Shown here: positions 1 to 9,010 of the stretch, piece by piece
How positions within the stretch are numbered: position 1 is the stretch's first letter
Layout of the letters: every line of letters begins with the position of its first letter
Origin: a phage
Sequence record: PV805633.1
Direction: 5' to 3' (one strand)
DNA length: 64,000 bases
Made by a program: the position numbers and the translations under genes
The notes under the pieces: generated by a model
What the model was told of the DNA's origin: nothing
Database searches by the model: none
The model's input: only the letters and a program-made list of their open reading frames with translations

Positions 1-87
1 TGACTGGGGCTACACCCTTACACTCAACCATCCCCCCCGGTATGTTGACCCTGTAGCCACTACCCTACCCCACCTTACACGTTACAC

Positions 88-100
88 GTTGCTCCGCAAC
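88..100 (+). promoter_or_regulatory. N4-type virion-RNAP early promoter hairpin (GTTGC-TCC-GCAAC)
   Basis: 5-bp GC-rich inverted repeat with 3-nt loop TCC (template loop GGA), followed by CTATGGA; same architecture recurs at 767 and 4748, all intergenic and upstream of plus-strand genes. Confidence 0.5.
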
Positions 101-143
101 CTATGGACATGTCGTCCTATCATCAACTATTGGAGCTATCATC

Positions 144-467
144 ATGACTACTACCGCTACTGTACGTATGACCGCAGGAACTCTGCTGGGTACTGTTAAC
201 TCAGCTGCTACTACTGTTGCAGATTCCTTCGGTGCTGCAACAAAAGCAGTTGGTATGCTTAATTCTTATGTAAGTACTATGGCAAAGAAACAAGCCATTC
301 GTACTAAATTAGAAATGCATACTTTCGAAAACAAATTAGCTGAAGAAACAGCTATGAACGAGACTCTTCGTAAGAAAAGTATCGAAGAATTCTGCAAAGA
401 TCCAGAAAACGCTCGTATCTACAACGCAGAATATTCAAGAATAATTGACATCCTGTCTAAAGACTAA
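144..467 (+). CDS. hypothetical early protein (107 aa)
   Basis: ORF track; SD-like TGGAG upstream; first gene after promoter hairpin. Confidence 0.6.
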   Translation: MTTTATVRMTAGTLLGTVNSAATTVADSFGAATKAVGMLNSYVSTMAKKQAIRTKLEMHTFENKLAEETAMNETLRKKSIEEFCKDPENARIYNAEYSRIIDILSKD

Positions 468-470
468 ATC

Positions 471-497
471 AATAGGAGGCTCTTCGAGCCTCCTATT
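471..497 (+). terminator. 12-bp perfect hairpin with 3-nt loop directly after ORF stop; no T-tract (possible phage-RNAP terminator or processing site)
   Basis: AATAGGAGGCTC-TTC-GAGCCTCCTATT read from sequence. Confidence 0.3.
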
Positions 498-556
498 AAG
501 GGCATTAGATAGATAGATAGTCAGTTCTGTATAAAAAGATAGGAGAGATACCTACT

Positions 557-703
557 ATGAGCAAACTAAAAAACGCATTCATGCTGATTGTCAGTGTCCT
601 TGCACTTGTTGCTATGGTTTCCGTATACATTGGAAAACCTCTGGTAAACACTGACTATGGTAATGGTCAGAAAGTAAAATCCATCCTGCTAATGGATAAG
701 TAA
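557..703 (+). CDS. small membrane protein (48 aa)
   Basis: ATG preceded by AGGAGAG; hydrophobic core MLIVSVLALVAMVSVYIG; below the 60-aa ORF-track cutoff. Confidence 0.4.
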   Translation: MSKLKNAFMLIVSVLALVAMVSVYIGKPLVNTDYGNGQKVKSILLMDK

Positions 704-766
704 AATGTCCTTGAATCTAAATCACCGTAAGAAATTCTGGATATCTTACATACCCTAAAAGACAAC

Positions 767-779
767 GACGCTCCGCGTC
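767..779 (+). promoter_or_regulatory. N4-type virion-RNAP early promoter hairpin (GACGC-TCC-GCGTC)
   Basis: Same stem-loop architecture and downstream TTATGGA as the hairpins at 88 and 4748. Confidence 0.5.
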
Positions 780-887
780 TTATGGATGATGTAAATGCAT
801 CCACTAATCATTGAAATTTTATCCTTTTGTTTGGGTGTTCTCACCGACGAGTTCACCCGTAATTCACATAAATCTGGAGAGTACAAA

Positions 888-1271
888 ATGTCTATTCAAA
901 AATTCACTTTCGGTCAATCTAACGCTGCTGCTACTTCTACTGCTAAAGCTGATAAACCTAAAGCTCAGTTCTGGCTGAACATTGGTTATGTAGCTAATGA
1001 AGGCTCTGATGATGAGAAATTCATCTCGCTGCCTACTGGTATCCCACTGGATACTCAGGAACCGCTGCCTACTAACAGCAGCAATGCTGACTTCCGTGCT
1101 ATGCGTTGTGCACAGAACGATTTGCTGGAACAGTTAATCGAATATGCTCAGAACCTGAAACCAGGTGAAGAGGGTATCATTAACCTGCAAGTTCAACTTC
1201 GTCGTGTGAAAGCAGAGGCTGCTGACATCCCAGCAGACGAGAATAAATATGCTCGTAAACTGACTTTCTAA
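888..1271 (+). CDS. hypothetical early protein
   Basis: ORF track 795..1271; start moved to internal ATG preceded by GGAGAG because the promoter hairpin lies inside the longer ORF. Confidence 0.5.
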
Positions 1272-1280
1272 TCAACAACT

Positions 1281-1310
1281 GGACTCCCTTCGGGGAGTCC
1301 TTTTATTTTT
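1281..1310 (+). terminator. rho-independent terminator
   Basis: GGACTCCC-TTCG-GGGAGTCC followed by TTTTATTTTT. Confidence 0.7.
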
Positions 1311-1415
1311 AACTCAGCGATAAACTAAGTAGAGTGTAATCCTACTTTTAGACGAAGAGTCACTAAAAGTTAAACGTAAACAGAAGCAGATAACTTAGAG
1401 TAAGGAGTAATCAAG

Positions 1416-1715
1416 ATGCGTACATTATGTAACCGTTATAACTCACAGAAGTTGATTGTTACGTTGCAACCTTGGGGTAGTAAGATGTCATTGGATGCTC
1501 GTTGGCAAGTGTCTGTAGAAGGCAAGAATGGCAAATGTCATGACCACTACTTCGTAGCTAAGCCTACTCGTAAACAAATCCGTAAACTTCACAAAGTACG
1601 TAAGCATTACTTACTAAGTAAATGCTACGAATGTGGCAAAAGGATAGAACTAGGTAAAGAATTTACTTTTGATGATCTCAACTATGCTCACAATAACTGC
1701 TTAGGAACTAAATAA
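1416..1715 (+). CDS. hypothetical Cys-containing protein (possible zinc-binding)
   Basis: ORF track; AAGGAG SD; CHDHY...CYECGK spacing. Confidence 0.55.
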   Translation: MRTLCNRYNSQKLIVTLQPWGSKMSLDARWQVSVEGKNGKCHDHYFVAKPTRKQIRKLHKVRKHYLLSKCYECGKRIELGKEFTFDDLNYAHNNCLGTK

Positions 1716-1817
1716 AATGACTACTCATAAAATTGTAAAAAGCTGGACTACTGAAGCTGGTTTATCTGCTGTAATCCTGCTAGTAATGATGGTTCTCACC
1801 ATTGTGGTTACGTAGCA

Positions 1818-2120
1818 TTGCCTGCTGATTTAGCAGACAAAGACTTTATTAATTATGATCCAGAAGAATCCATTTCTGTTCATGGTGGTGTTACCTATCA
1901 AGATGCACTTCCTCAATTAGAGGATAAAATCGCTATCGGTTTTGATTGTGCTCATCACGGTGACCTCATGAAATGCCCTGAGAAGTACAAAGGTACTCCT
2001 CTGGAAGGACTGCGCATGTATTCAGAAGGTGTATGGCGAGATGAGCAATATTGCACCAATGAGTGTGAGTCTATGGCTAAACAACTAATGGCAATGTTGC
2101 CTAAACAACTAGAAGGATAA
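1818..2120 (+). CDS. hypothetical protein; 5-prime end uncertain
   Basis: ORF track (TTG start, no SD); frame is open upstream to about 1755 and may join the ATG-initiated ORF at 1717 through a 1-nt frame change near a T run. Confidence 0.35.
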   Translation: MPADLADKDFINYDPEESISVHGGVTYQDALPQLEDKIAIGFDCAHHGDLMKCPEKYKGTPLEGLRMYSEGVWRDEQYCTNECESMAKQLMAMLPKQLEG

Positions 2121-2124
2121 TGCT

Positions 2125-2277
2125 ATGAAGCTACTAGCAGAGATTCTGTGTATTTTATTAATGATACTGCTGGTAGCTGCATTTCCGTGGCTATTAGCCG
2201 TAGGCATTATTATTGGTATGCTCGTAGCCGGAGCGAGTGATGCTCGTGGAAGAGATGAGCCAGGTGGGGATGTGTAA
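2125..2277 (+). CDS. small membrane protein (50 aa)
   Basis: ATG after AGAAGGA; hydrophobic LLMILLVAAFPWLLAVGIIIGMLV. Confidence 0.4.
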   Translation: MKLLAEILCILLMILLVAAFPWLLAVGIIIGMLVAGASDARGRDEPGGDV

Positions 2278-2291
2278 ATACTGTCAGAAGA

Positions 2292-2483
2292 GTGTGTACG
2301 GAGGAACCAGTGATATTCACTAACATTGAGGATGCCATTGAAGAATGTATCTTCCGTAGATATCACACTGGAGTGCAGAAAAGACACTATGGTGTTGTAC
2401 AACTCAATGGTTATCAAATGGCTGTAAGAATTGTACGTAACAATAAACCTTTTAACTTTATGTGGAGTACTAAACATGCGTAA
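2292..2483 (+). CDS. hypothetical protein (63 aa)
   Basis: ORF track. Confidence 0.4.
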   Translation: MCTEEPVIFTNIEDAIEECIFRRYHTGVQKRHYGVVQLNGYQMAVRIVRNNKPFNFMWSTKHA

Positions 2484-2607
2484 GTCATTAATCATGGGAA
2501 CCAAAGCTGACGTACAAAAGATGAAAGAGCGTCTGGCTGCTAAGCAACAGACATCTGAACCAGTACGTAAGATTGTTACCTTCAATCATCCGTGCATCAA
2601 ATAGTAA

Positions 2608-2638
2608 GGAGTCCTCCAATAGGAGGCTCCTATTTTTT
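2608..2638 (+). terminator. rho-independent terminator
   Basis: GGAGTCCTCC/AGGAGGCTCC stem followed by TATTTTTT; shares AATAGGAGGCTC with the hairpin at 471. Confidence 0.6.
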
Positions 2639-2681
2639 ATTTTTGAATAGTTAGATATGTATTTAAATAGGAGAAAGAACC

Positions 2682-2990
2682 TTGAATGAAATAGTATGCA
2701 TACTTCCACACTTAGCTAAAGTAGCTGATAGGAATATACGGATACATTTACCCTTCCCATTAAGTAACCCATTCACTCGTAATGAAAGAACCACAGTAGA
2801 GGATATAGAGGTAGCTTATGAAGCTTACCTTCGTAATCGTCTTATTAGTGGTGACAAATTAATTACAGCAGAGATGGAAAGGATTGCTGGCTTTGTCACA
2901 GATAGTACAAAGAAACCTGTTGGTTTAATTGGTACTGAATCTGATGTTAACGTTATTCGTAAAATATTAATGGAGGCATTAAGCCAATGA
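2682..2990 (+). CDS. hypothetical protein (102 aa, TTG start)
   Basis: ORF track; GGAG 8 nt upstream. Confidence 0.45.
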   Translation: MNEIVCILPHLAKVADRNIRIHLPFPLSNPFTRNERTTVEDIEVAYEAYLRNRLISGDKLITAEMERIAGFVTDSTKKPVGLIGTESDVNVIRKILMEALSQ

Positions 2991-3208
2991 TGTACTCAAA
3001 CGATTATGGTATATGCCCAGTCTGTAAGAAAGGACGTGGAGTTGCCAATCATAAGCGTTGTAGTCGTATTTTGCAGAAACAACGGAACCAGGAAGAATGG
3101 TCTAAGGTGTTGGAAAATCAGCATAAAGAAGAGAATCAACAGATGGCTGTTAGGGCATCTACTCAACGTATTCGCCGTATTAACTATATACAAGGATACC
3201 AAAAGTGA
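2987..3208 (+). CDS. hypothetical small protein with CxxC motif
   Basis: ORF track; overlapping start/stop with neighbours. Confidence 0.5.
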   Translation: MMYSNDYGICPVCKKGRGVANHKRCSRILQKQRNQEEWSKVLENQHKEENQQMAVRASTQRIRRINYIQGYQK

Positions 3209-3462
3209 TTATTACATTCCCTGTAACTAAATCATTTAACTATATGGGACAAACTATTGAAGTCCCATTATGGGTTAAATATGTAGCCTTATTGCCTCGA
3301 CCACAGAAGAGTAAGAATGCCTCACTAATTGGATTTAGTAGAAAGCCTAAGCTAACCGAAAACTGTATTTGGAAGTCTAGCGGTAGACAAGAGGAAATTG
3401 GTTTTTGTGACTATGTACCTCAACCGAATACAGTATATCTAACCCTGGAGAAAGTAGAGTGA
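3205..3462 (+). CDS. hypothetical protein
   Basis: ORF track; start/stop coupling. Confidence 0.5.
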   Translation: MIITFPVTKSFNYMGQTIEVPLWVKYVALLPRPQKSKNASLIGFSRKPKLTENCIWKSSGRQEEIGFCDYVPQPNTVYLTLEKVE

Positions 3463-3773
3463 ATAATATTGTAGTAGTACATGATAGTACATTTACTGAT
3501 GTCGATAAGATGATGCGTAATATTGATTATGTATCTCAGACCAGTAAAGCATTTAACGAAGAGTTCACTATCTATTGTGAACCAGAGTCACCACTGGTTC
3601 CTGTATTAAAGGAAGCAGGTCTACCCTTCTCTACAGAGAACTTCCCGGAGGAACCAGAGTATATGATTACATTCATATATGACTTACATGATGGCTCTCC
3701 TGCTAGTGAACTAGCTATGAACCAGTGGAGTAGTAAACGTCCTGTATATGCTTTCCAGGTACTCAAACCATGA
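3459..3773 (+). CDS. hypothetical protein
   Basis: ORF track; start/stop coupling. Confidence 0.5.
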   Translation: MNNIVVVHDSTFTDVDKMMRNIDYVSQTSKAFNEEFTIYCEPESPLVPVLKEAGLPFSTENFPEEPEYMITFIYDLHDGSPASELAMNQWSSKRPVYAFQVLKP

Positions 3774-4012
3774 TCTACGAAGAATATTATGTATTCAAAA
3801 AGGGAGATGATTTTATAGCTATGCCTAATAATTACAGGGGTTGGCATACAACTCCTGTATTAAAGGAAGCATTTTCCGTACCCAACCTGGAAGAGGTTAA
3901 TAAAGTAATGAACGGAGTAATGCTAACAAGAGGTATGGCTTACAAAATAGACGCATTAGAAGGAGCTTCTGTATGCAAAGTAACTACATCCATTGAGGTA
4001 CTTAAACCATGA
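3770..4012 (+). CDS. hypothetical protein
   Basis: ORF track; start/stop coupling. Confidence 0.5.
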   Translation: MIYEEYYVFKKGDDFIAMPNNYRGWHTTPVLKEAFSVPNLEEVNKVMNGVMLTRGMAYKIDALEGASVCKVTTSIEVLKP

Positions 4013-4389
4013 AAACTATCCCATTAGGTGATAACACCAATGCTTTGATGGGTGTATCCGCACGTCCAATTATCATTGTTAATAAACATCACGGTAAATC
4101 CGGTGAGTATATTGGACGTGGCTCACCGTTAGGCAATCCATTCGTCATTGGTAAACATGGAACCAGAGAGCAAGTAATTGCTAAGTATAAAGTCTGGCTA
4201 CAAGAACAGATTGATAAAGGTAATCCAGTTGTACTGGATGAACTTAATCGTCTTGGTAATAAAGCCATAGATGAAAAAGGATTAGCCTTACAGTGCTTCT
4301 GTTATCCAAAACCATGTCATGGTGCGGTTATTAAAGAGAAGCTAGTAAAGGCTATGTATAACTACTTTGTAGAAAATTCAAAAGGATAA
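4009..4389 (+). CDS. DUF4326-like protein
   Basis: EYIGRGSPLGNPF motif recalled from the DUF4326 family. Confidence 0.5.
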   Translation: MKTIPLGDNTNALMGVSARPIIIVNKHHGKSGEYIGRGSPLGNPFVIGKHGTREQVIAKYKVWLQEQIDKGNPVVLDELNRLGNKAIDEKGLALQCFCYPKPCHGAVIKEKLVKAMYNYFVENSKG

Positions 4390-4392
4390 TTC

Positions 4393-4743
4393 ATGAAAGA
4401 AATCTTAGTATTCACTACCAATGTACTTGGGCAGCATACCAATGCTGCTGCCAAGTTAGCTTATAAGAAGCACGGTGCACGTTGGGGCATGGCCTACGGT
4501 CATTATGGTAATAGCTTTGCCATCCCAGTAAGGGATGGCAATGGTAACCGAATTAAAGAGGGTGCTATCTATGGCTTCGTTGAAGGCTTTATTTCCTATG
4601 CATCTACTAATCCACAGTGGGATTTCAAAGTAATGGGAGATGACTATCTGGACCCATACCTGTTCAATAATGTTACTGGCAATGTACTGTTACCAGAAGC
4701 ATGGCGTAAATACTTAGGTGATGCTTACAACTACTGGTCATAA
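4393..4743 (+). CDS. hypothetical protein
   Basis: ORF track. Confidence 0.5.
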   Translation: MKEILVFTTNVLGQHTNAAAKLAYKKHGARWGMAYGHYGNSFAIPVRDGNGNRIKEGAIYGFVEGFISYASTNPQWDFKVMGDDYLDPYLFNNVTGNVLLPEAWRKYLGDAYNYWS

Positions 4744-4747
4744 GAAG

Positions 4748-4760
4748 GGTGCTCCGCACC
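4748..4760 (+). promoter_or_regulatory. N4-type virion-RNAP early promoter hairpin (GGTGC-TCC-GCACC)
   Basis: Same architecture as 88 and 767, followed by TTGTGGT; 32 nt upstream of the RNAP II small-subunit gene. Confidence 0.5.
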
Positions 4761-4791
4761 TTGTGGTAATTAAATAATTGGAGAATATGCG

Positions 4792-5610
4792 ATGTACTCA
4801 TCTATCGAACATCAGAAGCAGCTTGAAGTCCTATTCAATAAAAATCAATTACTGCCTCGCATGAGGAAGGAATTCGAGGACTCCAAAGAAATTGACTTTA
4901 AGGCATTCGCTGCCTATTTGGAAATTGATTATAAGCTGCTCATTGATGCAATGGTACAAATTGCCCTACATAAACGTGCTGACATCCAGACTATGATTGG
5001 CTCTCTCATGAGTCACTCAGATGATGCTCAGTACATCGCTGACTGTCTGTATAAGATGGCAGAGAATGACTGCTTCAACTATGACCCTACCATCGACAAG
5101 TTCGGTGTTATCTATGAGATTAGTGAAGATGTTCAGATGGAACTGGAAGCATTCCAGTATCCATTACCTATCGTAAGTGCTCCTAATCCTGTCAGAACTA
5201 ACAGGGATACTGGTTATTACCAGACTAAAGGAAGCATCATCCTCAAGAAGAACCATCATGAGATGGATGTCTGCCTTGACCACATCAACCGTATGAACAA
5301 TCAACGTCTCTGTATTAACTGGGACGTTGCTAACTATGTAAAAGACTCTCGTCCTAACATGGATAAACCCAAAGAGGGTGAAACCCGTCAGGAATATGAG
5401 AAACGTGTTAAAGCCTTTGAGAAGTACAGTCGTACAGCTAAGGAAGTAATGGAGTTAGTGACCCAAGAAGGTAATAACTTCTCACTAGGCCACAAATACG
5501 ACAAACGTGGGCGTACCTACGCTCAGGGCTATCACATTAACTATCAGGGAACCAGCTACAACAAAGCTGTTCTGGAGTTCGCTGATAAGGAGCTGGTAAA
5601 CGATGATTAA
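4792..5610 (+). CDS. phage RNA polymerase II small subunit (N-terminal part of a T7-like single-subunit RNAP; N4 gp15-like)
   Basis: KYDKRGRTYAQGYHINYQG resembles the T7 RNAP DWRGRVYAV...NPQG region; size 272 aa and position match N4 gp15. Confidence 0.65.
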   Translation: MYSSIEHQKQLEVLFNKNQLLPRMRKEFEDSKEIDFKAFAAYLEIDYKLLIDAMVQIALHKRADIQTMIGSLMSHSDDAQYIADCLYKMAENDCFNYDPTIDKFGVIYEISEDVQMELEAFQYPLPIVSAPNPVRTNRDTGYYQTKGSIILKKNHHEMDVCLDHINRMNNQRLCINWDVANYVKDSRPNMDKPKEGETRQEYEKRVKAFEKYSRTAKEVMELVTQEGNNFSLGHKYDKRGRTYAQGYHINYQGTSYNKAVLEFADKELVNDD

Positions 5611-5736
5611 TAATCGTGCAGTAGAAGACTTCTATGCTCATAGAGAGTTGGTACTGAAACGTATCAATGAAGCAATGAAACGTGAAGCAGAAGCTAAAGC
5701 TAAACGTAACCGTAAATAAATCCAAATGCGAGCCAA

Positions 5737-6185
5737 GTGGCTCAAGACGCTAAGGAATATAAAATGCAACTGTTAACCGCCCGTGAATACCTGAAAGTAG
5801 ATATCGCTAACAACTATGGCTTAGACAAAAAGACATGGGATGAGCGTATTAGCTGGTTCGATGAGAACGAAGCTAACCTGCTCAATCTGGTAGATGAAGC
5901 TGAAGAATCTGCACTGTTCTACGCAGGTGTAAACGCTTGGAAAGATATGAAAGCTGGTAAGCCTATCGGTTATGCCGTAGCTCTGGATGCTACATCATCT
6001 GGCTTGCAGTTACTGGCTTGCTTGACTGGTGATCGTTCTGCTGCTGAATTGTGTAATGTAGTTAACTACATGGGCGAGAATGGTAAGCCATTACGACGTG
6101 ATGCTTATACAGTTATCTATCACAAGATGCTGGACATCCTTGGTGAATCATCCCGTATTAAACGTAGTGATACTAAGCAGGCCGT
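5737..6185 (+). CDS. phage RNA polymerase II large subunit, exon 1 (motif A)
   Basis: LDATSSGLQLLACLTGD matches T7 RNAP motif A; frame ends 2 codons into the insertion; RIKRSDTKQAV is the first half of motif B. Confidence 0.7.
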
Positions 6186-6991
6186 TAACCTATAAGTCAT
6201 GGCGGCCTTTAAACCGGGTGAACTCATGGAACATCCCTAGTGGACAATCATGAGCCAAGTTGGTAACGTAGAAAGCTCAATAAGGAGCATTCTATGTCAG
6301 AATTCAAAACGTGCAGTCGATGTAAAGAATTACTTCCTATCGAAGTATTCCCAGAGACTAAAAAAGCAATCACAGGACTCAAGACTAATTACGAGAATCG
6401 TTGCAGACCTTGCAAGGCTGCTGCTGCTCGTGAATGGCGTAAAAATAATCCCGGTTACACTGGAACTGGGATTCTTAAGGCAATACCGGAAGAGCATCGT
6501 AATGGTATTCAGCAGTCTCACTTAGACTGAGAGATGCAAAGAGCAGATGTAAAAAGCTCGGTAAGCCTATGCCTGATTGCACAGTAGAGTACTTATTTGA
6601 AATCCTTAAATCACAGGAATTCAAATGTGCTTTAACTGGTGCAACCTTAGTAATTGAGTCGGGACATCCCTTGTGTCTATCATTAGACCAGATAGAGCCA
6701 AGCAAGGGATATAGTATTGATAATGTTCAATGGTTAGCTTGGTGTGTAAACCGAGCAAAGGGTGACCTTTCTACCAATGACTTTATTGATATGTGTGATG
6801 CTGTTTTGAATAACCAAAAGGTGCAGAGACTATCGAAAAGCAGCGTAAGCTGAACTTAGTAGAGTAGGCCCAAGTGGGTCGAAGCGCCCGGCTAGACTAA
6901 TAGTCTAGATGATATAGTCCGAACTCACTGGTAACAGTGAGATGCAGGTAAAGCTGCTGGGGAAGATTAACGACCTTCCTTGAACATAATG
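6186..6991 (+). mobile_element. putative group I intron carrying an HNH homing endonuclease
   Basis: Splits motif B; exon 1 ends in T, intron ends in G; GCGGCC guide sequence about 16 nt in pairs with the exon end GGCCGT with U-G at the splice site; P7-like AGACTA/TAGTCC and S-like GATGATATAGTCCG; internal ORF has its own AAGGAG SD. Confidence 0.6.
6294..6853 (+). CDS. HNH-family homing endonuclease, disrupted by a 1-nt frame change near 6500-6510
   Basis: N-terminal CSRCK...CRPCK zinc ribbon (ORF 6294..6530); C-terminal LRLRDAKSRCKKLGKP...CALTG...SLDQIEP..GYSIDNVQW..CVNRAKG in another frame (open from 6503, ORF 6569..6853). Confidence 0.55.
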
Positions 6992-7787
6992 TATGACTGC
7001 ATTCTATGGTTCAGAAGCCAAGCCTAAAGAAGTATTCGGTGAAGGTATTCGTCTCAAGACTTTTGAGAATGTAATGGAAACAGTTGCTAGTGGACCTTGG
7101 GCACTGAACAAGTTCTTACTGCAATGTGGTGACCCGGATGCTAACCGTTACGTATGGATACTGCCTGACAACTTCCATGCTGTCATTAAGGTCATGGTTC
7201 CAGAAGTACAGACTGTTAACTTCTTAGGTAAGCCATTCGACATCACTCGTATGGTTCAGGGTACTGAAGATAAGACTCGTATGCTCTCTGCTAACATCAC
7301 CCACTCTATTGATGGAATGGTGGTACGTGAGATGCTACGTCGTTGTAACTTCAACATGAACCAAGTGAACTATGTTAAGCCCCTCTGTGAAGGAACCAGT
7401 GAGTATATGCTGGGTACTAGCGAGAACTACGACATGGTTAGTCAACTGTGGCATAACTATGAGAAATCAGGATTCCTGTCTACCCGTATCTTTGATTATC
7501 TGGATTCTGACTCAATTAAACTGGTTGATACAGATGTAATCATGGCTATGCTTAATACCATGCCTAAGAAACCATTCCCTGTAATGACCGTACATGACTG
7601 CTTCCGTTGCCACCCTAACTACGGTAATGACTTGCGTCGTCAGTACAATCAGATTCTGTCTGACATTGCTAAGAGTGATCTACTGGGCTTCATCCTGTCT
7701 CAGGTACTGAGACAAGAGTTCTCTGCTGGTAAGCTGGATGACAGCCTCTGGCAGGACATCCTTGAAACGGATTATGCATTAAGTTAA
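6992..7787 (+). CDS. phage RNA polymerase II large subunit, exon 2 (motifs B and C)
   Basis: MTAFYGSEAKPK matches T7 MTLAYGSKEFG; VHDCF matches T7 motif C IHDSFG; exon 1 + exon 2 = about 414 aa, close to N4 gp16. Confidence 0.7.
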
Positions 7788-7794
7788 TAAACTG

Positions 7795-7829
7795 GCCTCA
7801 TACCTTCGGGTATGGGGCTTTTATTTTTT
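7795..7829 (+). terminator. rho-independent terminator
   Basis: GCCTCATACC-TTCG-GGTATGGGGC followed by TTTTATTTTTT. Confidence 0.7.
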
Positions 7830-7831
7830 GC

Positions 7832-8029
7832 TTGGAGGTAGTCAACATGACAGACATCTATGATGTTATTACTAAAACTGTACTGATAGTTTTATCTGCT
7901 ATTGTGGTATTCACTATAGCCAATGTTCATAAATCCAAGTTTTCCTATTGCTACTATGGGGCATATTCTGCCGGATGTTTTGTATTAGCCGGTTGGATAG
8001 CTTACTGGATTTACCACATCAACAACTAG
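7832..8029 (+). CDS. small membrane protein (65 aa)
   Basis: ORF track; two hydrophobic segments. Confidence 0.5.
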   Translation: MEVVNMTDIYDVITKTVLIVLSAIVVFTIANVHKSKFSYCYYGAYSAGCFVLAGWIAYWIYHINN

Positions 8030-8056
8030 CCACCCTCATGGGTGGCTTTCTTTTTA
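8030..8056 (+). terminator. rho-independent terminator
   Basis: GCCACCC-TCAT-GGGTGGC followed by TTTCTTTTT. Confidence 0.65.
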
Positions 8057-8102
8057 TCAGCCTTCATAATGATTAGGCATATTTACCTAAGAGGATACAT
8101 AC

Positions 8103-8924
8103 ATGCCAACCCTAAAGATTGCGTTTAATAAAACAACCAACGTTGCTATCGTGCTTGATTCAGATGGTAGTGTTCCAGATGGTTTTGCGGAAGTAGGTAC
8201 TTTTGTACATCCTGATGCCACTTACCCTGATAGCTTAGTTATCTATCACGGTGTACGTGACCTGTTGTATAAACGTTCTGCTGAAGACCCTGCTGAAGAA
8301 GGTTTCTGGCCTAACAACATCGTGGATATGCAGTCGATCACTATTACCCCACAACTGTCTATTGCTACCGAACTGCCTAATGAAGTCTCTGCCATCGAAG
8401 GTGAAGATATTAACTGGCATATTGATGTAGCAGGTGGTAAAGCACCTTTTACCTATAAGTGGCAATACAAAGCAGGTACTGATGGTGCAGTATTCACTGA
8501 TATTGATTCTAGTGATAACGAATCTGCTGCTACTGCAACATTGACCCTTAATGGCGTAACCACTGCTTCTGCTGGTACTTATAAAGTGATTGTTACTGAT
8601 GCTAATGGAACCACGGTGGAAGATACCTCACTGCTGACTGTAAGCTACCCCGAAGCAAGTTCACTGGTAGCTACCCCTGATTCACTGGAACTGTCTGTTG
8701 CTGACGATGCCACTGATGGTAAGACTGTAACCATTACTGCTATGCCTGTTGGAGCGTCTGTTGGTACTTTATCTATCAAGACTGCTCCAGATTCTGCCCG
8801 TGCTACAGCTACCATTTCTGATAACGTACTGACAGTTAAACCTGTGGCAGAAGGTGAAGCTACTTCTGTAGTAGTTACCAACGGTACTGTCGATGTAACC
8901 ATCGCTATTACTGTTGCAGCATAA
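8103..8924 (+). CDS. Ig-like domain protein (I-set-like plus Big_2-like)
   Basis: GGKAPFTYKWQYK...AGTYKVIVTDANG pattern, then TVKPVAEGEATSVVVTNGTVDVTI. Confidence 0.55.
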   Translation: MPTLKIAFNKTTNVAIVLDSDGSVPDGFAEVGTFVHPDATYPDSLVIYHGVRDLLYKRSAEDPAEEGFWPNNIVDMQSITITPQLSIATELPNEVSAIEGEDINWHIDVAGGKAPFTYKWQYKAGTDGAVFTDIDSSDNESAATATLTLNGVTTASAGTYKVIVTDANGTTVEDTSLLTVSYPEASSLVATPDSLELSVADDATDGKTVTITAMPVGASVGTLSIKTAPDSARATATISDNVLTVKPVAEGEATSVVVTNGTVDVTIAITVAA

Positions 8925-8973
8925 GGGTATCTCTTATTTGGGGTTATAAACCTGAAAGGAATCCCTCTAGTTT

Positions 8974-9010
8974 GACCTCCCTATTGAAGGGAGGTCTTTT
9001 TTTTTTTTTG
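8974..9010 (+). terminator. rho-independent terminator
   Basis: GACCTCCC-loop-GGGAGGTC followed by a T run of more than 10. Confidence 0.75.

Follow-up and report, generated by a model that had tools for sequence, protein, structure and literature searches.

The early region and its genes

The window analysed here, 64,000 nucleotides of record PV805633.1, is the left 64 kb of the genome of a G7C-like, N4-like coliphage of the genus Gamaleyavirus, with about 94-96% identity to G7C. The G+C content of the window is moderate. Three short inverted repeats, labelled P1, P2 and P3 after their proposed counterparts in N4, are found in its early region (Table 1). All of the genes around them are encoded on the plus strand. 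The first early gene is a homologue of gp1, and the corresponding G7C record is likewise annotated as similar to N4 gp1. The small ORF that follows it, at 557-703, is extra relative to N4. Downstream of P3, the coding sequence of gp16 is split by a group I intron; its two pieces match positions 1-137 and 138-401 of phrog_2051, and the junction falls between QAV and MTAFYGSEAK. Sites resembling sigma-70 promoters were fewer in the early region than expected (9 against 24).

Table 1. Hairpin sites, predicted initiation regions, genes and terminators. Starts are predicted from the N4 spacing.
Feature	Position	Strand	Details
Putative P1 orthologue, hairpin GTTGC-TCC-GCAAC (non-template strand)	88..100	+	loop centre 94 = -11
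P1 initiation region C-TAT-GGA	101..107	+	predicted start G105 (+1), G106 = +2
gp1 homologue, first early gene	144..467	+	phrog_5020, E 2e-44; GGAG Shine-Dalgarno at 132-135
Small extra ORF, gp1.1 homologue, between gp1 and P2	557..703	+	
Putative P2 orthologue, hairpin GACGC-TCC-GCGTC	767..779	+	loop centre 773 = -11
P2 initiation region T-TAT-GGA	780..786	+	predicted start G784
gp2 homologue, cofactor of RNAPII	795..1271	+	phrog_4099, E 1e-51
Strong intrinsic terminator with T-run, past gp2	1281-1300		
ORF directly upstream of P3	4393-4743	+	
Putative P3 orthologue, hairpin GGTGC-TCC-GCACC	4748..4760	+	loop centre 4754 = -11
P3 initiation region T-TGT-GGT	4761..4767	+	predicted start G4765
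gp15, RNAPII small subunit	4792..5610	+	phrog_2166 (N4-like RNA polymerase), E 3e-117; GGAG Shine-Dalgarno at 4780-4783
gp16, RNAPII large subunit, split by ~800-bp group I intron	5737..7787	+	pieces 5737-6195 and 6993-7787
Terminator past gp16	7794-7819		
Virion RNA polymerase (gp50 homologue), 3754 aa	34770..46034	-	match to PDB N4 vRNAP, E = 0

Three hairpin sites at the left end of the genome

The preliminary description of this DNA had reported three hairpins at 88-100, 767-779 and 4748-4760, and each was found there. P1 is situated 88 nt from the left genome end, with no gene upstream, and precedes the ORF at 144-467; P2 lies between the ORFs at 557-703 and 795-1271, and P3 between those at 4393-4743 and 4792-5610. 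Thus, the ORF map bore out that the sites are intergenic and point in the same direction as the genes downstream. These include RNAP II genes as had been claimed; PHROG matches identified gp1, gp2, gp15 and gp16. None of the three hairpins lies more than 4.8 kb from the left end. The core heptamer GCTCCGC was likewise present, on either strand of the 64 kb, only at the three intergenic sites (positions 91, 770 and 4751). Two further claims required revision. The TrTGGw box is present at all three sites; however, it begins exactly 1 nt past the stem rather than 1-2 nt downstream, and its GG corresponds to the predicted +1 and +2. Further, the motif as written is on the coding, that is, the non-template strand, whereas the functional hairpin would be its template-strand complement, 5'-GC-GGA-GC-3' (for P1, GTTGC-GGA-GCAAC).

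We searched both strands of the window for missed copies using the pattern GC-T[CT]C-GC with up to three stem mismatches. P1, P2 and P3 were the sole perfect 5-bp stems with a TCC loop, on either strand. The search otherwise gave only GCTTCGC at 29885 and at 32521, which were considered as further promoters and rejected; 0 of 3 outer pairs formed and GG was absent. When the three sites were folded as DNA, the 5-bp stem with its 3-nt loop was the minimum-free-energy structure of both strands. The predicted hairpin energies were modest, at -3.2 to -4.7 kcal/mol, with weak z-scores of -0.5 to -2.3 that we did not count as evidence. Note that nearest-neighbour parameters may underestimate the stability of G-N-A triloops.

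Comparison with the promoters and virion RNA polymerase of N4

In N4, the promoters of the virion RNA polymerase (vRNAP), P1-P3, are located before gp1, gp2 and the RNAPII gene gp15, and each consists of a 5-7 bp stem and a 3-nt loop centred at -11 (PMC4496689). Biochemical and structural studies showed that they act as template-strand hairpins, in which the enzyme reads a purine at -11, G at -10, G at -8 and C at +1 (PMC4496689). The A at the 3' side of the loop (-12A) and a G:C loop-closing pair are needed for extrusion and stability, and the non-conserved stem bases are free to vary while pairing holds (PMC4496689).

The comparison with N4 P1-P3 that had been proposed yielded base-for-base alignments before gp1, gp2 and the RNAPII gene gp15, and the flanks were homologous at all three sites. 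P1 aligned with N4 P1 (gttgcTTCgcaac), with near-identical flanks. P2 aligned with N4 P2 (gaagcTCCgcttc) and P3 with N4 P3 (gctgcTCCgcagc), and these differed from N4 by compensatory changes of A-T to C-G and of C-G to G-C, respectively. Common to both phages are GC-T(C/T)C-GC at -11, a 3-nt loop, a 5-bp core stem, a 4-nt spacer and GG at +1/+2. The non-template strand carries T(-12)C(-11)C(-10)G(-9)C(-8) and G(+1) in each case, giving template -12A, -11G, -10G, -9C, -8G and +1C. The predicted +1 was assigned by the N4 spacing, eleven nt past the loop centre, with which the start predicted in the preliminary description (10-12 nt) agrees. Differences from N4 were also observed. The P1 loop is TCC here (template -11G) but TTC in N4 (-11A), and the P2 and P3 stems are 5 bp here, whereas up to 7 bp are possible in N4. 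All three stems here have the minimal 5 bp, in contrast to the 7 bp possible in N4 P2 and P3, and the relative strengths of the promoters may therefore differ.

The window also encodes a homologue of the N4 vRNAP, with 66% overall identity. The base-reading residues K114, R119, W129, D901 and R904 are identical to those of N4, and K268, K849 and K850 are conserved as well, as are the catalytic D559 and D951. The polymerase domain of the enzyme spans residues ~1263-2368. As judged from conserved residues, the enzyme possesses the promoter-recognition elements, namely the -11 recognition element, the specificity loop and the beta-intercalating hairpin, apart from position 267 in the latter, which is N here and K in N4. 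A Pfam search with the linker insert of the enzyme gave no match. We infer that this vRNAP reads the three hairpins.

Conservation and covariation in relatives

To compare the sites among relatives, we used 22 genomes together with the 64-kb window. The sites were anchored on the GCTCCGC heptamer alone, in place of a collection of perfect stems, which could not test pairing. On the coding strand, 50 of 51 heptamers were located in a perfect stem, with the three outer pairs complementary, and 49 of 51 were followed by GG at +1/+2. None of the four heptamers on the opposite strand fitted the pattern of stem and GG. Among the stem cells, 98.9% were paired (74% in shuffles), and pairing dropped to 12-46% when the register was slid. 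All three variable stem pairs changed on both sides (40 cells), and the covariation score was 0.59 as compared with 0.12, with the observed score reached by 0 of 500 shuffles. Among sites and phages, the outer stem triplet was GTT, GAC, GGT, CAT, GCT, GCA or GAA, with complementarity kept.

Alternative explanations of the sites

Short palindromes may arise by chance in a genome of 64 kb, and the simplest counts agree with this: perfect hairpins of 5 bp and 3 nt with any loop number 118 per strand, and the bare heptamer was found 3 times against 2.8 expected, a count that 50 of 100 shuffles reached. This non-significant count was therefore replaced by a test of the composite motif, that is, the hairpin and the start box. 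A perfect hairpin on GC-TYC-GC occurred 3 times against 0.10 expected, with 1 of 2000 shuffles reaching 3, and the hairpin followed by TGG at the fixed offset occurred 3 times against 0.002, with shuffles never exceeding 1. Further, the three copies are all in the first 5 kb, intergenic and facing downstream genes, and every relative examined has kept them, with covarying stems. We regard chance as a negligible explanation.

Two functional alternatives were considered, and both appear very improbable. Each site is a 13-bp near-palindrome at an intergenic regulatory position, as would be expected of a double-stranded operator for a dimeric regulatory protein of phage or host. However, the outer three positions vary freely yet stay complementary, a pattern of structure unlike that of half-sites read as sequence. 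The conserved TCC centre is asymmetric, a conserved GG flanks the stem on just one side, always at the same distance, and the motif is strictly strand-specific among the relatives. In addition, the sites align with N4 promoters proven to be template-strand hairpins. The stems might otherwise serve as transcription terminators, or as RNA stem-loops for processing or stability in read-through transcripts; RNA reading through from P1 would include the P2 and P3 hairpins, and a simple scan flagged the minus strand at 767-779 and 4748-4760 as weakly terminator-like. Terminators on that strand would have nothing to terminate because the genes of the region are all on the plus strand. The plus-strand sequence after the stems is CTATGG, TTATGG or TTGTGG and not a T-run, and the stems do not qualify as Rho-independent terminators; the real terminators, with stems of 8-14 bp, sit apart from the hairpins, past gp2 and gp16. 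P1 has nothing upstream to terminate, and an absolutely conserved loop, closing pairs and GG eleven nt away are not the signature of a terminator. Further, an Rfam scan of positions 1-9000 gave no match at any of the three hairpins.

The alignment with N4, the bases read, the covariation and the vRNAP residues support the assignment to N4 vRNAP-type promoters made in the preliminary description. We conclude that the three sites are very probably early promoters orthologous to N4 P1, P2 and P3, read by the injected, virion-packaged single-subunit RNA polymerase, and from this orthology we infer that they are active as promoters.

Known and putative hairpin promoters in other N4-like phages

This promoter type is already known. 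It is the textbook example, from N4 (1985-2008), of promoter recognition by structure; the literature on N4 P1-P3 includes Haynes and Rothman-Denes 1985, Glucksmann 1992, Dai 1998, Davydova 2007 and Gleghorn 2008, with a 2015 review (PMC4496689). The same sequences from hairpin to start have been published for the related Klebsiella N4-like phage KP8. Putative promoters P1-P4 were listed for that phage (PMC6950046, Table 1). Its P1, ACGTTGCTCCGCAACCTATGGA, is identical to the P1 site here, and its putative P2 equals the P2 of this phage over the stretch that begins with the stem and includes the start, GACGCTCCGCGTCTTATGGA (PMC6950046). The sites are also shared with G7C and other Gamaleyavirus genomes, and G7C is identical to this phage in the hairpins and start boxes of P2 and P3. 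No promoter features are annotated in the GenBank records of G7C and PhAPEC7.

Early hairpin promoters were predicted in the Pseudomonas N4-like phages LUZ7 and LIT1 (PMC3715699) and described in Pectobacterium phage CB1 (PMC6027278), and those of LUZ7 were confirmed when the transcription start sites (TSSs) were mapped by ONT-cappable-seq (PMC9163698). The promoters of LUZ7, LIT1 and CB1 share with those here a short stem (at least 4-5 bp), a 3-nt loop, a preference for starting with G, a location before early genes and an injected giant vRNAP. In contrast to the three sites and N4 spacing of 11 nt in this phage, LUZ7 has nine early TSSs, which are 13-14 nt from the hairpin centre; the 11-nt spacing is therefore not universal in the family.

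Three hairpins are present here, whereas KP8, G7C, L005, L012 and several other relatives have a fourth, between gp1 and gp2. The fourth hairpin of G7C, at the place that corresponds to 469-499 here, lacks GG at +1/+2; G7C also has P1 duplicated in its terminal repeat. Copies of the fourth hairpin adjoin inserted small ORFs, and both the extra copies and P2 have an A-rich box, YTAAAR, 3-8 nt before the stem. This box could be an additional aid to cruciform extrusion or only a trace of duplication. How many vRNAP hairpin promoters a phage carries thus varies within the clade. It is conceivable, although rather unlikely, that early promoters move as cassettes of a promoter and a small gene. On that suggestion, the three-promoter state here might be the minimal one, the gp1.1 homologue at 557-703 having perhaps lost its own promoter. 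This ORF would then rely on read-through past the weak hairpin that follows gp1.

Proposed mechanism of early transcription

Transcription from the N4 promoters starts with GTP 11 nt past the loop centre, is resistant to rifampicin and, in vivo, requires both gyrase and SSB (PMC4496689). If the orthologous promoters of the present phage act in the same way, the left genome end would enter the cell first, and supercoiling by host DNA gyrase would cause the 13-nt inverted repeat to extrude as a small cruciform. The template arm, 5'-NNNGC-GGA-GCNNN-3', would fold into a hairpin of unusual stability, capped by a G-N-A triloop, and E. coli SSB would melt the non-template arm. The vRNAP would then bind the template hairpin, with -11G stacked on W129 and bonded to R119, -10G contacted via K114, and -9C and -8G via D901 and R904. 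Binding of the hairpin would switch the enzyme from an inactive to an active form, and RNA would start with GTP at G105, G784 and G4765. From these starts gp1, gp2 and both RNAPII subunits, gp15 and gp16, would be transcribed, and the latter two would set up middle transcription; gp15 is the first gene of the predicted P3 transcript.

The predicted early starts and the early transcription units, which are missing from the public annotations of the closest relatives, are now placed. The analysis otherwise adds nothing new in general, and its useful addition is comparative. Among Enquatrovirinae-like genomes, the bases read and the vRNAP residues that contact them are constant, whereas the outer stem covaries, which, as evidence from evolution, independently supports the biochemical model.

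Hairpins at the left end of the genome

Over its first 6 kb and an internal stretch of 25 kb, the window shared 94-96% identity with Escherichia phage vB_EcoP_G7C (Schitoviridae, Enquatrovirinae, Gamaleyavirus); other G7C-like relatives number dozens, but no record was identical. Position 1 of the window aligned with position 1 of both the G7C and N4 records; the window therefore begins at the left genome end. The three hairpins proposed in the preliminary description as N4-type promoters were found exactly as described in sequence and position. They are intergenic and have the same orientation as the downstream ORFs, and the ORF map, with its gp1, gp2 and gp15 homologues, agreed with the claim that they face early genes including that of RNAPII. 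The TrTGGw box (TATGGA, TATGGA and TGTGGT at P1, P2 and P3, respectively) was present and corresponds to the initiation region, but it starts exactly 1 nt past each stem rather than 1-2 nt.

Promoter hairpins and associated genes in the window, with the matching sites of N4
Feature	Coordinates	Strand	Remark
P1-site hairpin GTTGC-TCC-GCAAC	88-100	+	read directly from sequence
N4 gp1 homologue	144-467	+	downstream of P1 hairpin
P2-site hairpin GACGC-TCC-GCGTC	767-779	+	read directly from sequence
gp2 homologue	795-1271	+	downstream of P2 hairpin
P3-site hairpin GGTGC-TCC-GCACC	4748-4760	+	read directly from sequence
RNAPII subunit gp15 homologue	4792-5610	+	downstream of P3 hairpin
RNAPII subunit gp16 homologue, interrupted	5737-7787	+	after gp15
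Virion RNA polymerase, 3754 aa	34770-46034	-	solved N4 vRNAP structures match, E = 0
N4 P1, gttgcTTCgcaac ttatGG			before gp1; matching site in N4 genome
N4 P2, aagaagcTCCgcttctt ttGG			before gp2; matching site in N4 genome
N4 P3, agctgcTCCgcagct tttGG			before RNAP1/gp15; matching site in N4 genome

The N4 promoters P1-P3 share conservation from -17 to +1, with inverted repeats flanking a GC-rich heptamer centred at -11; the N4 virion RNA polymerase (vRNAP) specifically reads template-strand bases -11A/G, -10G, -8G and +1C, and the start lies eight nt downstream of -8 (PMC4496689). In three-way alignments of the window, N4 and G7C, each window hairpin fell on its N4 counterpart with conserved flanks on both sides, which bears out the suggested comparison with N4 P1-P3. 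Compensatory changes were found in the stems of P2 (C-G in the window vs A-T in N4) and P3 (G-C vs C-G). All three window sites carry template -12A, -11G, -10G, -9C, -8G and +1C, and the predicted +1 positions, counted from loop centres 94, 773 and 4754, are G105, G784 and G4765. The hairpins are of the N4 type, but it is the template strand that forms the relevant hairpin, whose sequence complements the one originally written.

Conservation and covariation in related phages

We compared 20 IMG/VR loci encoding gp15 relatives (99% to 31% identity) together with G7C, N4 and PhAPEC7. GC-TCC-GC hairpins were present at the P1, P2 and P3 positions in every coliphage or Klebsiella-phage relative compared. 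Because circularity was to be avoided, the pairing test was anchored on the heptamer only and stems were not required. The outer three pairs were all complementary in 50 of the 51 coding-strand heptamers, where chance would give 1 in 64 per site, whereas GG stood at +1/+2 in 49; none of the four opposite-strand heptamers had either. In an alignment of 36 distinct heptamer-anchored sequences, standard pairs occupied 98.9% of cells, compared with 74% in shuffles, and all three variable pairs had changed on both sides (40 cells). The covariation score was 0.59 vs 0.12 and was reached by 0/500 shuffles, and pairing fell to 12-46% when the 3' arm was shifted by 1-3 columns. The non-template consensus was G(-17)NN-GC-TCC-GC-NN-C(-5)-TTrT-G(+1)G(+2).

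Alternative explanations

The heptamer GCTCCGC occurred exactly three times in the two strands of the 64-kb window taken together, all at the hairpins, as had been noted. However, this uniqueness is by itself no evidence, since 2.8 occurrences are expected and half of the shuffles contained at least three. Chance palindromes were instead excluded by the composite motif. Each strand contains 118 perfect 5-bp/3-nt hairpins, and only these three have a TCC loop; in 2000 dinucleotide-preserving shuffles, perfect hairpins on GC-T[C/T]C-GC, counted on either strand, were expected 0.10 times vs three observed, and one shuffle reached three. When TGG at a fixed offset was included, the expectation was 0.002 vs three observed, with a maximum of one in any shuffle. 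A relaxed scan of both strands of the window (<=3 stem mismatches) yielded no extra candidates; two GCTTCGC sites were rejected, being unpaired and lacking a stem and GG. Predicted hairpin energies were unremarkable, and thermodynamics was therefore left out of the argument.

An inverted repeat might also serve as a double-stranded operator, which is unlikely here: the variable half-site bases covary rather than stay conserved, the centre is asymmetric, the motif is strand-specific and GG stands on one side only. Equally, the sites are unlikely to act as a terminator or an RNA element, as the transcribed strand has no T-run after the hairpins, the real terminators sit apart (1281-1300 and 7794-7819) and no Rfam match was found at the hairpins.

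The virion RNA polymerase

The window vRNAP was 66% identical to N4 gp50. For the alignment to N4 gp50, mini-vRNAP residue numbers were converted by adding 997, an offset that is valid because all thirteen N4 residues checked carry the published identities. The residues for the -11 recognition element (K114, R119 and W129) and those of the specificity loop (D901 and R904) are kept, as are K849, K850, K268 and the catalytic D559 and D951. The sole difference among the checked residues is K267 of N4, which is N in the window enzyme. Given this conservation, the window vRNAP should read the same hairpin as the N4 enzyme.

The window enzyme is also ~250 aa longer than that of N4: ~290 residues (~975-1262) replace the 27-residue linker between the N-terminal and polymerase domains. 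By eye, this insert resembles two globular stretches linked by low-complexity Ser/Thr/Glu-rich segments, and it showed no Pfam match and no internal repeats.

Alignment, covariation, the bases read and the enzyme residues together support the proposed match to promoters of the injected N4 vRNAP, and the three hairpins are supported as putative early promoters P1-P3.

Promoter number and neighbouring genes

Between gp1 and gp2, a fourth hairpin is present in G7C, the Klebsiella phage KP8 and others. That of G7C (AACGC-TCC-GCGTT followed by gtttCG) lacks GG at +1/+2 and is located in an 85-bp insert after gp1. This insert is absent from the window, as is the G7C gene cassette gp1.2 (440-1262 of G7C locus L001 vs window 468-800). 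Therefore, window ORF 557-703, the equivalent of G7C gp1.1 (phrog_26357), lacks a dedicated hairpin promoter. No plus-strand T-run accompanies the hairpin that comes after gp1 (469-499), and P1 read-through may therefore express this ORF. A short (GATA)4 tandem run in the spacer between that hairpin and the ORF (~509-524) is conserved in G7C.

The right terminal repeat of G7C holds second copies of P1 and the fourth hairpin; its heptamers (1350-1356 and 1764-1770 of right-end locus L025) are spaced like the left-end pair. The window itself stops short of the right genome end. Further, in 16/49 distinct sites the stem is preceded, at 3-8 nt, by an A-rich box, YTAAAR (e.g., cTTAAAAaCCA); by eye, almost all of these sites belong to the P2 class and its extra copies rather than to P1 or P3. 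The box was found in the 14 nt upstream of gp1-gp2 hairpins in related-phage loci L001, L003 and L005-L016, and in the window at ~752-759 (CTAAAAGA). It might be left over from a promoter duplication, or it might be an AT-rich flank aiding extrusion.

The gp2 ATG at 795 is just 11 nt past the predicted P2 start and has no Shine-Dalgarno sequence. In the same frame, the ATG at 888 is preceded at 6 nt by a strong GGAGAG, and it is here (residue 32) that the match to the PHROG 4099 profile begins; despite these signals, protein-level conservation with N4 is apparent in the first 31 codons. Gene 16, encoding the RNAPII large subunit, lies in two ORF pieces, 5737-6195 and 6993-7787, separated by an insert of ~800 bp (~6187-6992), in which Rfam gave an Intron_gpI match below threshold (6602-6941; E 1.2e-4; 30.2 bits against a gathering score of 50). 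The residues flanking the insert, ...TKQAV and MTAFYGSEAK..., correspond to QAVMTAFYGSEAK, the published spliced-junction peptide of the already known g16 group I intron in G7C-like phages N4G2 and Sz33 (bioRxiv 10.1101/542787).

Discussion

The hairpin promoters are nothing substantially new, N4 P1-P3 being classic. Hairpin early promoters were predicted earlier in Pseudomonas phages LIT1/LUZ7 (PMC3715699) and Pectobacterium phage CB1 (PMC6027278), and those of LUZ7 were confirmed by TSS mapping (PMC9163698). In KP8, putative promoters ACGTTGCTCCGCAACCTATGGA and AAGACGCTCCGCGTCTTATGGA were identified by homology to N4; the former is identical to the window P1 site and the latter matches P2 from stem through start (PMC6950046). 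Neither G7C nor PhAPEC7 has these promoters annotated in its GenBank record, and the practical gain is therefore an annotation.

By inference from N4, the inverted repeat would be extruded by gyrase-driven supercoiling and its non-template arm melted by SSB; the template hairpin, 5'-GC-GGA-GC-3', would bind the injected vRNAP and activate it allosterically, and the enzyme would initiate with GTP 11 nt downstream. In N4, ~500 bp of the genome enter the cell first (PMC4496689), and P1, 88 nt from the genome end, lies inside this interval. Further, sigma-70-like sites are depleted in window 1-9000 (9 observed vs 23.9 ± 4.5 in shuffles), which is consistent with early transcription independent of the host RNA polymerase.
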